Positions 1,186 through 10,347 of a DNA stretch of 35,231 bases are shown piece by piece. Made by a program: the position numbers and the translations under genes. The DNA is taken from positions 1-35,231 of the IMG/VR virus record IMGVR_UViG_3300027798_002719, one strand, 5' to 3'. Below the pieces are notes generated by a model, which worked only from the letters and a program-made list of their open reading frames with translations, ran no database searches and was not told the DNA's origin. This DNA comes from a virus. Its lineage: Duplodnaviria; Caudoviricetes. The first letter of the stretch is position 1; the number at the start of each line of letters is the position of its first letter.

Positions 1186-1800
1186 GTGGACCCAATTACA
1201 ATCGGACTTGCATTTTCAGCCGCTCAGTCTGCTGTAAGTTATATTAAACAAGCTGTTGCACTAGGCAAAGACATCAACAGTCTTGCAGGGCAATTCAGTA
1301 AGTTTTTTGAATCCTCAGATTCTATCCATCGTGAACGAACAAAGTTAAAAGCCAAAGCTAATCTACTGGGCAAAACAGATGCAGAGCTAGGTCACGAAGC
1401 ACTTCAAATTGCCATGCACAGTGATGCTCTACGTCAAGCAGAGCGCGAACTCAAAGACATGATTCTTTGGCAACTAGGCAAGCCACAAATCTGGGAACAA
1501 ATGATTGCCGAGCGTACTAGACTGTTCAAGGCACGTGCCGACGCCCAACGTGCAGAAGAAGAACGTGAATTAGCGCACAAGAAGAAAATGGCAGATCAAT
1601 TTATGTTTGGAATGTATTTTATAGCAGGGTCTGCTGTTGTGTTTGCAATTGCAATGGGAGGCGTTGGTATATACGGTGCAATGGAAGAAAAACGAATATA
1701 TGAAGAAAAGGTTGCCAAGAGACTCCTAGTTATACGTCAGCAACAAAAAGAACGTGATGCTCGAGAACAGAAAGAGCGTGAAGATTACGCTAAAAACTAA
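1186..1800 (+). CDS. phage coiled-coil membrane protein (MDP-start family)
   Basis: GTG start with AAGGAG RBS; N-terminal amphipathic helix, coiled coil, TM helix near the C-terminus. Confidence 0.75.
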   Translation: MDPITIGLAFSAAQSAVSYIKQAVALGKDINSLAGQFSKFFESSDSIHRERTKLKAKANLLGKTDAELGHEALQIAMHSDALRQAERELKDMILWQLGKPQIWEQMIAERTRLFKARADAQRAEEERELAHKKKMADQFMFGMYFIAGSAVVFAIAMGGVGIYGAMEEKRIYEEKVAKRLLVIRQQQKERDAREQKEREDYAKN

Positions 1801-1936: not shown

Positions 1937-2095
1937 ATGTTTGAATGGATCTTAATACTTGCACTAGCCAAGGAACCAGATATTAAAAAATGGCCTGAGT
2001 GGGAGTGTGTGCGATGGACTTGGTCAGGTGATGTGTATAATCGCAGAGTAGTTTGCTTGGAATGGAGAAAGCGGGAGAACCGATGGATCCCTTGA
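1937..2095 (+). CDS. small Trp-rich protein, 52 aa, with a Cys pair (WECVRWTWSGDVYNRRVVCLEW)
   Basis: Hand-translated; fills an operon gap; hydrophobic N-terminus. Confidence 0.6.
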   Translation: MFEWILILALAKEPDIKKWPEWECVRWTWSGDVYNRRVVCLEWRKRENRWIP

Positions 2096-2865
2096 CCCTT
2101 TTTGCATTGGCTAATGGAGCAGTCTCTGCTGTCAAGGCCGGCTGTAAACTTTACAAAGATATCAAAGGCGCGGCTGGCGATGTAAAGGATGTGATTAAAG
2201 ATCTCGATGCACAATTTCAAAAATTACATCCTCCAGAAAAACCGCCTACAGTAGCACAGAAAAATGCCTACATAGAAGAAAAAAATCGTGTAATTACGTT
2301 GAACAAACGAGCCAACGCAGATGACCATACTAGCATCTACACAGAGATCGGCAATCATCTTGGCACATACTATGATAATTTTTACAAATGCATGGCTGTG
2401 TTCGAAGTAGAGGAACGAAGGGCAAAGACTGAAGTTTACACAGGCGATGACAGTCTAGGCAAACGTGCTTTACAACGTGTGCTGATGCGTAAACAATTAC
2501 AACAAATGGAAGTTGAATTACGTGAACTAATGGTCTATCAAAGTCCTAAAGAACTGGGCGCATTGTACACTGAAGTAGAAGAAATGATGGCACAAATGGG
2601 TAAGGAACAAAAAGTCCTTATTACTCAACAAATGCAACGGCAAGCCATAGAAAACAAACGCAAGGCCGCAAAAAGAAAACAACTCAACATCCAGTTTGCT
2701 TGGGGGATAGGAGTATTGATTATAATCTTTTTTTTCTTTTTTATAATGATGTTGGTAGCACAGAGTCGACAGCAAATGTACCCACAATATGGTAATGGGT
2801 TCTTTCCAACATCTGAGGAAGAACGTCGCCGAGAAGCTCAGCCGCATGTTTATATAGGAAGGTAA
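2083..2865 (+). CDS. phage coiled-coil membrane protein, probable paralog of 1186..1800
   Basis: Start moved to ATG 2083 (MDPLTLFALANGAVSAVK, GGAG RBS); same architecture; LQQMEVELRELMVYQ resembles LRQAERELKDMILWQ. Confidence 0.75.
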   Translation: MDPLTLFALANGAVSAVKAGCKLYKDIKGAAGDVKDVIKDLDAQFQKLHPPEKPPTVAQKNAYIEEKNRVITLNKRANADDHTSIYTEIGNHLGTYYDNFYKCMAVFEVEERRAKTEVYTGDDSLGKRALQRVLMRKQLQQMEVELRELMVYQSPKELGALYTEVEEMMAQMGKEQKVLITQQMQRQAIENKRKAAKRKQLNIQFAWGIGVLIIIFFFFFIMMLVAQSRQQMYPQYGNGFFPTSEEERRREAQPHVYIGR

Positions 2866-2878
2866 ATACTCTATTAAA

Positions 2879-2974
2879 GAACACACCTTAGGACCCGTTA
2901 TTCGTAACGGAGTGTGCGCCGGCTGCTGGCGCGAGAGGCTAGGCCGGGAATCCTAGGCTTTCGAAAGTGAGCAC
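2879..2974 (+). ncRNA. unnamed structured RNA between convergent genes
   Basis: GC-rich island with three stem-loops (including CCGTTA-TTCG-TAACGG) and its own TAAATA at 2863..2868. Confidence 0.6.
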
Positions 2975-2976
2975 TT

Positions 2977-3057
2977 TTATTTTAATTGCCATTCAAGCCA
3001 CATTAAGAACGCGGTAATTAACAATGTCAATATTAGAACAATTTGTGGTAATCTCAT
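2977..3057 (-). CDS. small membrane peptide, 26 aa (MRLPQIVLILTLLITAFLMWLEWQLK)
   Basis: Hand-translated; ATGA overlap with the upstream stop. Confidence 0.5.
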   Translation of the reverse strand: MRLPQIVLILTLLITAFLMWLEWQLK

Positions 3058-3485
3058 ATTTTGTATAGTTTAAAAAAGTAAGTAACTAACGTGCCAGCCA
3101 CAAAACACCAGCACAACACATCAATCTGTTTTTGTCGGTCATGATCCATAGCAGACAATTCAGCTTTGTATTCTTTTTCTATAACAGCTTTTTCAGCTTC
3201 TACTTTAGTCCATGCATCCTTGCCGTATTTTTGAATGGTTTCTGCTTTTAGTCTGGCCACATCACGTTCATACTTCATTTTAGATTCAAACTTTTCAAGA
3301 GCCCTGTATTCAAGAGTTGATTTTCGATGTTGCTCTGCTAGTTTAGATTTTATACGGGATTCATGCTCGCGCCGAACGGTAGCCTCCATATCAGCCTGCT
3401 GGCTTGATACAACTGCTCCTAATTCCTTGCCTGCACTTTGGGCTGTTTTAAGTGCCGTTGTTGCGGATTTGACTCCGTCAAGCAT
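3054..3485 (-). CDS. coiled-coil protein with C-terminal membrane anchor
   Basis: Start moved to ATG 3485 (AGGAG RBS); TAAATA at 3509..3514. Confidence 0.7.
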   Translation of the reverse strand: MLDGVKSATTALKTAQSAGKELGAVVSSQQADMEATVRREHESRIKSKLAEQHRKSTLEYRALEKFESKMKYERDVARLKAETIQKYGKDAWTKVEAEKAVIEKEYKAELSAMDHDRQKQIDVLCWCFVAGTLVTYFFKLYKI

Positions 3486-3632
3486 GTTGTTGCTCCTGTT
3501 ATTAAAAGTATTTACTTGCAATAGCAATAATATTAAACTCTACTGTTATTATTACAACATGTTAATTTTCCAACATGTTAAAAAAACAACACCTTAATTT
3601 TTTAGATAAATATTTGTCAGGAGGACACAACC

Positions 3633-3791
3633 ATGAAACAGAAAAAACTACTAGTTAAACTGTACAGGGCTTGCGTCGACCATGATACAGAAACGGTTTT
3701 TGAACTCAAGAAGAAAGAGTTCGCTAAGATACTGAAACACAAGGCCGAAGGCAAACCATTTACAGCAAAATGGGTTTTGGTACAAGTTTAA
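3633..3791 (+). CDS. small basic hypothetical protein, 52 aa (MKQKKLLVKLYRACVDHD...)
   Basis: Hand-translated; AGGAGG RBS; TAAATA at 3607..3612. Confidence 0.7.
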   Translation: MKQKKLLVKLYRACVDHDTETVFELKKKEFAKILKHKAEGKPFTAKWVLVQV

Positions 3792-3835
3792 CACAAATGT
3801 AATCTTTCAAACACGATACTACGATAAATATTGCT

Positions 3836-4609
3836 ATGCAAAAAACTTATCGTAGTATTTTTGTGAGTGATGTCCACTTAGGTACAAAAGACTGTAAGGC
3901 GGAACAACTCAATAATTTTCTCAAGCACAACACCTGCGATACTCTCTACCTCGTTGGTGATATCATTGATGCGTGGAAGATACAACAAAACAAATGGCGA
4001 TGGAAACAGAGCCACACTAACGTAGTACGCAGAGTACTTGGCCATGCCAAACGCGGTACCCGTGTGGTATTCATAGCAGGCAATCATGATGAATTCTTAA
4101 GGCCCATGATACCTTATGGTTTCAATTTTGGCCTTATAGAGATACACAATCAAACGGAACACATTGGTGCAGACGGTAAACACTATCTTGTTACACATGG
4201 TGACTTATTTGATGGCATCACTAGACTGGCACCATGGATTGCGTTCTTAGGAGACAAGGCCTATGACATTATTCTTACACTCAACAATAAATTTAATTGG
4301 ATTCGGCGCCGTATGGGTTTTGGGTACTTTAGCCTTAGCAAGTATCTTAAGTACAAGGTTAAAAAAGCAGTAGACTTTATATTCAAGTTTGAAGAAAACT
4401 TGGCTAACTATTGTAAGAAGCGTGGCTTTGACGGTGTCATATGTGGACACATACACCACGCAGAGATCAAAGAAATCAACGGTGTCACATACATGAATGA
4501 CGGAGACTGGGTTGAAAGTTGTACAGCACTTGTAGAACATCACGATGGCCGTTGGGAAATTGTAACATGGACCAAACAGAATGACAAAGACGATACTGAT
4601 AATAACTGA
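3836..4609 (+). CDS. UDP-2,3-diacylglucosamine pyrophosphatase-like metallophosphoesterase (LpxH-like, COG2908)
   Basis: SDVHLG, GDIID, GNHD, HGD, GHIH and GDWVES motifs. Confidence 0.88.
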   Translation: MQKTYRSIFVSDVHLGTKDCKAEQLNNFLKHNTCDTLYLVGDIIDAWKIQQNKWRWKQSHTNVVRRVLGHAKRGTRVVFIAGNHDEFLRPMIPYGFNFGLIEIHNQTEHIGADGKHYLVTHGDLFDGITRLAPWIAFLGDKAYDIILTLNNKFNWIRRRMGFGYFSLSKYLKYKVKKAVDFIFKFEENLANYCKKRGFDGVICGHIHHAEIKEINGVTYMNDGDWVESCTALVEHHDGRWEIVTWTKQNDKDDTDNN

Positions 4610-5588
4610 TAACTTACCGGAGCAGATCAATGGCGTTGTCACAACTTACAAAAACATCGAGGCTTGTGCGGTTCTGGATGGTTATTGCGTTGTTTACATT
4701 ACTCCCAGGGACTTCCGCCACTTTGATTGTCCTGGCTACAACGAAGTCAAGATTGCCATTACCTGGCAGATGGGCAAGAAGATTGAGGCGATCAGTGCGG
4801 ATTATATCCATATCGCCACAGAGGGTCCTGTTGGTCTGTCTGCTAGAAAATATCTTTCAAAACATCGTCTTAGGTACAATACTGCTTATCATACTAAGTT
4901 TCCTGAAGGACTCCGTGCTTTATTTGGAATACCTGAAGCCATTACTTGGCCTTTAGTACGTTGGTTCCACAAACACGCAGGCAAGGTGTTGACTACTACA
5001 GACACAATGGTAGCAGAGTTGCGGGCACATGGATTTGATGGTGATGTTATTCCTTGGACACGCGGTGTTGACCGTAGTATATTCAATCCAAGTCAACGTA
5101 CTGGTACTGTGGTAAATGGTCCTATACTAGTATGTGTTAGCAGAGTCAGTAAAGAAAAGAATTTAGAAGCTTTCTTTGAAATGCCCTATGCGGGTGTTAA
5201 GTTTATGGTGGGTGATGGTCCCATGTTGGAAGAGTACAAGGAAAGCTATCCTGATGTAAAATTTGTAGGTGCCAAGCGTGGTCAAGAACTAGCCAAGTAT
5301 TTTGCCATGGCGGATGTGTTTGTGTTTCCTAGTCGTTGGGAAACATTTGGACTGGTAATGATTGAAGCAATGGCTTGTGGCACTCCCGTAGCAGCCTATC
5401 CTTGCCAGGGTCCTTTAGATGTCATAGATGAAGGCGTCACCGGGTGTATGCGTGAGGACTTGGCACAAGCAGTCACTGATGCGTTACTATTAGATAGATC
5501 CAAAGTTTTAGCAGGTAGTCAGCGTTGGACATGGGAACGTGCCTGGACTATCTTTAGAGACAATTTAGTATCTGTAAAATCATTGTAA
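4581..5588 (+). CDS. GT4 family glycosyltransferase
   Basis: NGVV, HIATEGPVG, VSRVSKEKN and ETFGLVMIEAMACGTPV motifs. Confidence 0.92.
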   Translation: MTKTILIITDNLPEQINGVVTTYKNIEACAVLDGYCVVYITPRDFRHFDCPGYNEVKIAITWQMGKKIEAISADYIHIATEGPVGLSARKYLSKHRLRYNTAYHTKFPEGLRALFGIPEAITWPLVRWFHKHAGKVLTTTDTMVAELRAHGFDGDVIPWTRGVDRSIFNPSQRTGTVVNGPILVCVSRVSKEKNLEAFFEMPYAGVKFMVGDGPMLEEYKESYPDVKFVGAKRGQELAKYFAMADVFVFPSRWETFGLVMIEAMACGTPVAAYPCQGPLDVIDEGVTGCMREDLAQAVTDALLLDRSKVLAGSQRWTWERAWTIFRDNLVSVKSL

Positions 5589-9125: not shown

Positions 9126-9806
9126 TTATACTATTTCCGGGAACAGACATTCCTGGATAAAGTGTTGTACATCTTCCTCACTTAGCCCTAAACTGACCAT
9201 TACCCGCGGTGTATGGGGGTTGCATTTCTGATTTTGTGCGTAGTAGTTCTGCGCTAGTGTAGTATCTATTGCGGTGTTGTTTGTTTCAGAGACTGTGCTT
9301 AAATAGTGTGCAACAGTAGTTCTTGCTAGATTTGTAATTTGTTCTAGTTCTTCTGGATCTTGTACGTTGCCAGCGGCTACCATGCTTCCACTGAATATGT
9401 TAGTGGCCCACTCAGGTAAAGCACGTTCTTTGCGCCATTCTAGTTTGGCAACTTCATCGTGGAACCACTGCATCATAGGATGGTCAGCATCGCCTGCTTT
9501 TGAGTAATCGTGAAAACAGCCTGTGATCTTGTTCTTACCAGCAATAACATCAAAACCGTAAATCGGTGCTGGATTGTGAATGTGTGGAAAGATACAACAG
9601 TGCATCATCCATAGTCCTTTGCTTTCCCTAGCGTCCACTACATCAACGTGTGCCCTTCGATATGATTCGCTAGTCCATACACGATTGACCCAACCTGGTT
9701 GATTAAAGCGATCCATACCTGGCTCAAATATTTCCATGCCGGTTGCATCAAAACTTTCTTCTAACAGGGTTTGTATTTCAATCAATGTATCCCAGACTTT
9801 ACTCAT
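9126..9806 (-). CDS. ferredoxin-dependent bilin reductase (PcyX/PcyA-like)
   Basis: YRRAH, MMHCCIFP, PIYGFDVI, LPEWATNIFS and QKCNPHT motifs; adjacent to heme oxygenase. Confidence 0.88.
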   Translation of the reverse strand: MSKVWDTLIEIQTLLEESFDATGMEIFEPGMDRFNQPGWVNRVWTSESYRRAHVDVVDARESKGLWMMHCCIFPHIHNPAPIYGFDVIAGKNKITGCFHDYSKAGDADHPMMQWFHDEVAKLEWRKERALPEWATNIFSGSMVAAGNVQDPEELEQITNLARTTVAHYLSTVSETNNTAIDTTLAQNYYAQNQKCNPHTPRVMVSLGLSEEDVQHFIQECLFPEIV

Positions 9807-10347
9807 TGGGTACCAACGTCATCATTTCTTCAAATAATTTACCAGCATACCCGAAGCATACAATTGCTTCATCGGCTAAACTGTCATCTAATTTAGCACG
9901 TAGAATATTTTTAATAGTATCCGGTTCGTCGCCGAACTGATACATACGACCAGCACCTGGAACACGTTTAGCGATCATTTGTCCTCCAGATAAATCACCG
10001 AAGTGCCTAACATATAAATGTGCTAGTAACTTTTTAGGATCATCTTTAATGCTAAGAATGTATTCAATATATTCTTTAACTACTGGACATATATATGGTT
10101 GGTCGTTATCGTTGCCCCATAATTCTATAAAGTCTTCTAATATAGCAGGAGCTCTTCGAATAGCAGGGTAGTCACTCATCAAACCGTGTGGCATAGCACA
10201 TACTTCAAGTATTTCATAACACGGGTGCTGATTCTTAAGGAATGTTGCGTATAATTTAGGATCAATTTTGCCCGAAAATAAAACTTTTACAAACGGTTTA
10301 GTCTCTGCAGATTTGTGTGCTTCGTGCGTTAGATCTTTTAGGCTCAT
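9799..10347 (-). CDS. heme oxygenase (biliverdin-producing)
   Basis: LKDLTHEAHKSAE proximal His; AHLYVRHFGDLSGGQMI distal motif. Confidence 0.93.
   Translation of the reverse strand: MSLKDLTHEAHKSAETKPFVKVLFSGKIDPKLYATFLKNQHPCYEILEVCAMPHGLMSDYPAIRRAPAILEDFIELWGNDNDQPYICPVVKEYIEYILSIKDDPKKLLAHLYVRHFGDLSGGQMIAKRVPGAGRMYQFGDEPDTIKNILRAKLDDSLADEAIVCFGYAGKLFEEMMTLVPNE

Follow-up and report, generated by a model that had tools for sequence, protein, structure and literature searches.

The question raised by this locus is what is encoded by a GC-rich island (60% GC, against 40% for the window) lying between two convergent genes of a large T4-like phage. The window is the whole stretch of DNA analysed, a virus record of 35 kb (35,231 nucleotides). 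A sequence-only reading had proposed that positions 2863-2974 carry a stand-alone structured small RNA with its own late promoter, either a trans-acting sRNA or an unrecognised ribozyme, and every motif that it had listed was present at these positions. The element is a conserved structured one outside the catalogued families, and most likely it is a phage RNA that pairs with host rRNA, in this class with both subunits.

The predicted folded RNA of about 92 bases (2881-2972, + strand) follows an open reading frame (ORF) of 270 aa (2053-2865, + strand), for which no Pfam or PHROG family was matched and whose stop codon TAA (2863-2865) is located 16 nt before the first stem. The T4-type late-promoter-like hexamer TAAATA (2863-2868, + strand) overlaps this stop codon, as had been described, and no gene follows directly on the same strand, the next one (3054-3527) being on the minus strand and convergent with the element. 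Judging from the ORF sequences, the window also probably encodes nrdA/nrdB, dnaK, clpS, a small heat-shock protein, iscU/iscA and cspA, and neighbouring ORFs at 9126-10347 (minus strand) resemble a ferredoxin-dependent bilin reductase and a heme oxygenase. Records of relatives with the element reach 300-355 kb. By eye, the ORFs at 1186-1800 (+), 2053-2865 (+) and 3054-3527 (-) share similar Ala-rich starts, long charged helical middles and a hydrophobic C-terminal stretch, and they are possibly a paralogous membrane-anchored family. A small ORF, a metallophosphoesterase gene (COG2908/PlcP-like) and a family-4 glycosyltransferase gene are arranged in tandem at 3633-5588 (+ strand).

Fold and family of the element

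The 5' domain (2881-2916) consists of stem P1 (2881/2882-2886 with 2912-2916; CACAC/GTGTG at 2882-2886/2912-2916), which encloses an antisense segment, module A (2885-2901), and hairpin P1a (2895-2910). P1a has a UUCG loop and is a degenerate reverse-complement copy of 23S helix 69; it is optional, being missing from minimal members such as L120. Stem-loop P2 (2916-2932; stem 2916-2920/2928-2932) presents a loop (2921/2922-2927) that pairs with the 3' tail as a pseudoknot, and G2916 is assigned to both P1 and P2, a clash of 1 nt. Hairpin P3 (2933-2962) has the stem 2933-2943/2952-2962 and the loop 2944-2951, and the tail (2964-2972) consists of an A-rich linker and the pseudoknot strand, which masks the 16S-complementary module described below with one bulged base. 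All of these features are on the + strand. Neither tRNA nor tmRNA was called in the window by ARAGORN. Single-sequence folding gave z values of -1.5 to -1.7 on both strands, and 14-17 of 200 shuffles folded equally well; by itself, the sequence of this copy does not fold clearly better than chance, whereas the family does.

The family was assembled from IMG/VR with two patterns. A 15-nt pattern returned 119 loci (estimated total, approximately 360), and a loop-plus-tail pattern returned 119 further loci (approximately 2200, chance matches counted in), about one fifth of which were judged by eye to be chance matches without the 5' motif and were removed at parsing. Parsing yielded 205 elements, 162 of them distinct, and 72 of the distinct copies were hand-picked for diversity and aligned. 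Over 21 named pairs, 89.5% of the cells of this alignment pair, compared with 32-46% in slid registers, and two-sided changes occur in 16 of the 21 pairs. P1 shows two-sided changes in all four pairs with 75% of cells paired, and P2 in four of five pairs with 99% of cells paired; P2 and P3 were also recovered independently by RNAalifold. The structured RNA read from the single sequence was thus borne out by covariation in the family. Since part of the alignment set had been chosen on the pseudoknot, the pseudoknot was recounted in three sets that had not been, and 191 of 310 distinct sequences (a number that includes chance matches and simple forms) fitted the pseudoknot rule. These counts rest on a strict tally, because a looser automatic caller gave spurious calls on chance matches. 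The main loop/tail pair was present in 163 of the 191 parsed pseudoknots and the remaining 28 deviate; in L049, L675, L517, L580, L656 and L685, both strands are altered together. The 3' pseudoknot suggested earlier therefore covaries as well.

A model built from the alignment scored 91 of 100 tested metagenome loci (120 fetched) at E ≤ 0.001 and found one copy in the window. One copy was likewise found in four of five large virus records and two in the fifth, where the second copy (L244:1500-1582; G002:C1:76937-77019) has a decayed 5' domain but retains P2, the loop of P3 and the tail strand of the pseudoknot; judging from this copy, the 3' domain alone may function. When one of the 64 parts of GTDB was searched with an over-loose pattern, none of 100 tested loci (of 120) scored with the model. 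The pattern CCTTAGG..TACGCCA returned mostly chance matches, 7 of 120 passing the filter, one of them doubtful. Two loci picked up by pattern, L625 and L712, are true 23S genes.

A simple two-hairpin form was also returned by a scan independent of the pseudoknot. It consists of an anti-helix-69 leader and a hairpin with a loop antisense to 23S 1930-1937, mostly followed by a U-run, and it has neither the pseudoknot nor P2. Simple forms were observed at L503, L509, L525, L530, L533, L535, L537, L550, L557, L558, L566, L581, L583, L591, L603, L659 and L703.

Strand assignment was based on the stems, in which G-U pairs outnumber A-C combinations by 56 to 15, which supports the + strand as the RNA. 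The earlier argument for this strand from G-U pairs thus held, while its other ground, the UUCG loop, is weak evidence on its own because the loop is closed by A-U in the window copy.

Scanning of the whole window with the Rfam 15 covariance models at the gathering threshold gave no hit, and scanning of 2780-3060 at E ≤ 10 gave one chance match of 18 nt; with 20 complex and 20 simple relatives, only sub-threshold matches to other families were obtained. The view that the RNA belongs to no recognised riboswitch or ribozyme family was upheld by these scans, and the suggested COG2908 motif was not, there being no Rfam match and the neighbours being variable. Searches with blastn of the window copy, L005 and L603 against annotated phages gave nothing useful. 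In the literature searched, largely outside subscription journals, no description was found of this RNA, of any phage RNA that pairs with host rRNA, or of a 16S 530-loop module. No description was found in the searched parts of PMC5737381 and PMC10690425, although the fold may be among the 8495 unnamed candidates of the latter.

Complementarity to host rRNA

The window copy was compared with the rRNAs of E. coli rrnH. Positions 2885-2895 of module A are exactly antisense (11/11) to 23S 1921-1931, and with one bulged base the pairing reaches 23S 1916, giving 16 bp. A second module (2920-2933, + strand) is exactly antisense over 2920-2930 (11/11) to 16S 517-527 in the 530 loop and, including one G-U, forms 14 bp with 16S 514-527. 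The least variable bases of the element are those of these two exact blocks. Two antisense blocks of at least 11 nt occurred in 13 of 5000 shuffles and in 1 of 1463 other tiles of the window, and no sense block of at least 10 nt to rRNA was found in the window copy. The coordinates matched here and below lie in H69-H70 and H42-44 of 23S rRNA and in h18 (the 530 loop) and h28 of 16S rRNA. Neither target stretch differs between E. coli and the two other taxa compared (named GTDB loci), and such invariant targets leave no host-phage co-variation to compare.

An exposed, conserved seed complementary to a trans target was thus found in silico with rRNA as the sequence searched, as were antisense elements of at least 10 nt such as an rRNA guide would carry. 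The loop antisense to 23S 1921-1931 lies in the covarying fold, and the second loop, to 23S 1929-1937, is missing here: the usual P3 loop of the family (antisense to 23S 1929/1930-1937) is replaced in the window copy and in L149. The new P3 loop pairs fully with 16S 1379-1386 (7 Watson-Crick pairs and one G-U), a match that was found post hoc and has a chance probability of approximately 3% for a 7-mer; its pairing with 23S 1938-1945 had a net energy of 0 kcal/mol and was rejected. Tail positions 2966-2972 are antisense over 7 nt to 23S 1099-1105, which is weak by itself, and neither this match nor one to 23S 1070-1076 (7 nt each, weak net energy) was relied on. The net pairing energy was about -8 to -9 kcal/mol per module, calculated for naked local RNA without the pseudoknot and proteins; the 16S module is largely locked inside P2 and the pseudoknot. 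Dimerisation of the RNA through loop A, which is nearly palindromic, and a further pseudoknot within the RNA were set aside because complementarity to rRNA explains the same bases.

Across the family, 92 distinct copies chosen on the 5' motif alone were examined. Antisense stretches of at least 8 nt to 23S 1928-1980 were found further downstream in 75 of the 92 copies (15 of 460 shuffles), and stretches of at least 10 nt to 16S 515-532 in 69 (1 of 460 shuffles); the copies are related by kinship, so these counts show conservation and not independent origins. The remaining 23 copies lack 10 nt of 530-loop complementarity. In L012, L024, L068 and L078, which have no 530 module, P2 carries a Shine-Dalgarno-like complement of the 16S 3' tail, and most of the 28 deviant pseudoknots have one or two mismatches to 16S with no obvious replacement. 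When the variant P2 loops were compared with other conserved rRNA sites, only scattered matches of 7-9 nt (23S 2421-2429 and 2442-2450, and 16S 1379-1386) and many blanks were obtained, which was not significant. The simple form L659 matched 23S rRNA records antisense over 20 of 20 nt in blastn, with no other hits.

Other classes carry alternative loops antisense to the neighbouring 23S sites 1825-1836, 1961-1969, 1968-1979 and 1929-1937, and this exchange of loops, together with the 16S-tail complement found in P2 of some members, is the clearest indication that complementarity is under selection. In the class of L513, L636, L702, L724, L589 and L704, a single RNA has as many as four or five antisense modules (up to four in L513), each of them directed at 23S domain IV (sites 1921-1930, 1971-1979, 1828-1836, 1961-1969 and 1929-1937). 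In the classes of L001, L027, L028 and L142, another strand of the same RNA is complementary to the anti-23S loop A and masks it, in parallel with the 16S module masked by the tail. The main loop/tail pair is imperfect and is kept in spite of perfect alternatives, as would be expected if an outside partner fixes the sequence.

These observations point to a late trans-acting RNA that would pair with free or unfinished host subunits and block the formation of 70S ribosomes, possibly feeding rRNA salvage; this reading is judged to have about an even chance of being right. The earlier proposal of a trans-acting sRNA accordingly stands as plausible and as the best reading, but its grounds are now the antisense matches to rRNA, which it had missed. 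A more specific version is offered tentatively and may well prove wrong: a modular jumbo-phage RNA that would pair simultaneously with the intersubunit bridge of 23S rRNA and the decoding loop of 16S rRNA, with exchangeable loops aimed at other universal rRNA sites, and would hold the host subunits apart and route them into rRNA salvage. In the main reading, the RNA would be synthesized late, here from the TAAATA promoter, whereas most relatives would make it as the 3' end of a transcript that begins upstream. The exposed loop A would then dock on 23S 1925-1931 and zip into helix 69, while the P3 loop would take a neighbouring site, which is 23S 1929-1937 for the majority of the family and 16S 1379-1386 for the window copy. 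The tail of the pseudoknot would pass the weakly masked P2 loop on to the 530 loop of 16S rRNA. Subunits bound in this way would be unable to join or mature, so that host translation or assembly would be throttled, and interfaces exposed to RNase E would free nucleotides and phosphate for a genome of approximately 300 kb, as large as the related records.

According to PMC9638911, H68, H69, H71 and H42-44 are unfolded or disordered in late 50S intermediates, and the target sites would therefore be reachable there. Decay of rRNA of the starvation type acts on free subunits, and 23S rRNA is cut after 1942 (PMC4931109); free subunits being substrates of decay, salvage of nucleotides and phosphate is a reasonable purpose, though a guess. 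Against the trans-acting reading, a lytic phage needs ribosomes, and any benefit of blocking them is likewise a guess. The window copy has also lost the usual 23S loop, a quarter of the copies examined (23/92) are without the 530 module, and the simple forms are without P2.

Transcript origin and rival roles

TAAATA occurs 31 times in the window, and at 20 of these sites the start codon (ATG) of an ORF follows within 45 nt, at 8 of them within 12 nt; for permuted hexamers, only 1-7 of approximately 40 were as close to an ORF start. TAAATA is thus a plausible late promoter in this phage and may drive the window copy. Among 153 relatives, it was found 8-45 nt upstream in only 14, and a same-strand stop codon was located within 30 nt in 123, mostly 3-13 nt before the core or inside it. 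An own promoter is therefore not a family trait, and the description of the RNA as standing alone with its own late promoter can be retained at most for the window copy. Upstream TAAATA was more common where no ORF abuts (6/30 vs 8/123; Fisher p 0.033). No intrinsic terminator was called behind the window copy. In 116 copies with enough flank, a same-strand ORF was found upstream in 108 and downstream in 97; the first 60 nt downstream contain TAAATA in 43 copies, and the 80 nt upstream contain it in 17.

RNA-library contigs, which are assembled sequences that carry presence and not strand, ends or level and may be of DNA origin, cover the 3' part of a variant resembling L149 (X1, X2, X3 and X5); these L149-like contigs begin at P1 in two studies and extend upstream in two others. 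Contigs of the same kind include X1, which also spans a close relative over 2875-2979, and X7, which has an identical piece of 2920-3083.

The genes next to the relatives are unrelated accessory genes. The only recurrent neighbour encodes an 86-aa DNA-binding protein resembling T4 DsbA and is found no more than two genes downstream of the element at 22 of 57 loci (L124, L142, L150, L182 and 18 more); this gene marks the edge of a variable island and had no tblastn match in the window. In L033, L056 and L060, the RNA element is immediately 5' of a leader resembling that of the small ORF at 3633-5588. The element and the COG2908 gene are connected by position. It is unlikely that the element is a riboswitch, as the gene following it in the window is convergent and the downstream genes of relatives are unrelated, many having their own TAAATA.

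The position beside a stop codon also fits a role in cis, and this counts against the trans-acting reading. In such a role, the element would lie on the mRNA behind the stop codon, be opened by the terminating ribosome, and hold or split the subunits by the rRNA pairings described above, to aid recycling or re-initiation. The frequent same-strand downstream genes agree with this, as do the proximity of the 530 loop to the path of the mRNA and the central part that helix 69 plays in ribosome recycling. Such a cis tether is nevertheless considered unlikely: there is typically one copy per genome, behind unrelated genes, a separate TAAATA is present within 60 nt for 43 of the 116 genes downstream, the window copy is followed by a convergent gene, some copies that have a promoter do not abut an ORF, and the simple forms end in a hairpin and U-run. 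The single copy in four of five large records, the unrelated neighbours and the enrichment of TAAATA where no ORF abuts speak for a trans-acting RNA.

Also improbable is a guide or chaperone function, by which the RNA would recruit a nuclease or modifying enzyme, of the phage or of the host, to the 1930/1931 junction or would shield its sites from host defence nucleases. The 23S targets of loops A and B, the latter being the usual P3 loop, share positions 1929-1930, as would the two parts of a guide directed at a single site, and the classes together cover both strands of the 1825-1836/1968-1979 region, suggesting an unfolded target. Neither modifying enzymes nor core proteins were found among 55 scanned neighbour proteins, however, no nuclease or modifying gene being consistently adjacent and only the DsbA-like gene recurring. 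The window copy is without loop B, and shielding of the decoding site by pairing would itself inactivate it.

A self-cleaving ribozyme or ligand aptamer of a new class, with the rRNA complementarity due partly to coincidence or ancestry, would account for the compact fold, the conserved unpaired bases, the H-type pseudoknot with an inserted hairpin and the optional peripheral stems, but it appears very unlikely. Neither the window nor the 40 relatives matched Rfam, there is no coherent set of downstream genes, the simple forms drop the pseudoknot and retain the antisense loops, and alternative loops that match neighbouring rRNA sites would not be explained by a catalytic core. The earlier suggestion of a ribozyme thus found no support in the Rfam scans or in the variable neighbours.

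Least probable of all is activity of the minus strand, as an RNA that would imitate helix 69 and the 530 loop in the sense orientation and so decoy rRNA-cutting toxins or ribosome factors, or as a DNA decoy for an rDNA homing endonuclease: this strand carries sense copies of the rRNA pieces, folds about equally well (z -1.5), could be read through from the convergent gene and includes a 23S stretch that is the insertion region of I-CeuI and group I introns, but the excess of G-U pairs, the upstream genes on the + side in 108 of 116 copies, the U-runs after the last hairpin of simple forms, and the splitting and permutation of the 23S site, which destroy a contiguous mimic or DNA site, all argue against it.

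Known systems and implications

The trans-acting RNA proposed here resembles several known systems in part. CopA/CopT of plasmid R1 and RNA I/RNA II of ColE1 are loop-presenting antisense RNAs, and they likewise use a folded RNA with complementary loop bases for first contact followed by strand invasion; they are encoded opposite their own target and control replication, whereas the phage RNA matches universally conserved host rRNA with several separate short modules and in both subunits. A short trans seed and an origin from an mRNA 3' end or an own promoter are shared with sRNAs of the RybB and CpxQ type, but their targets are mRNAs, whereas the phage RNA matches rRNA and no intrinsic terminator was called behind the window copy. 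With the H/ACA, C/D and U3 snoRNAs, which guide or chaperone rRNA, it shares short stretches antisense to conserved rRNA, a possible action on immature particles and a two-part guide; the snoRNAs belong to RNPs of eukaryotes or archaea and have box motifs and core proteins, in contrast to a bacteriophage-encoded RNA with no linked partner enzyme. The outcome predicted here, in which the subunits stay separate or mRNA-rRNA pairing retains a subunit after termination, is also that of the anti-association factors IF3 and RsfS and of calicivirus TURBS, although IF3 and RsfS are proteins and TURBS pairs with eukaryotic 18S rRNA upstream of a stop codon.

The target sequences are unchanged in E. coli, and the subunits of this species are therefore suitable for direct testing of the prediction. 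If it is true, a viral RNA would act directly on bacterial rRNA of both subunits, and an RNA of less than 100 nt aimed at invariant sites would provide a new route of host take-over that is potentially independent of the host species. It would also reveal which functional rRNA sites admit natural strand invasion in vivo, and it could link ribosome turnover to the supply of nucleotides and phosphate for large phage genomes.
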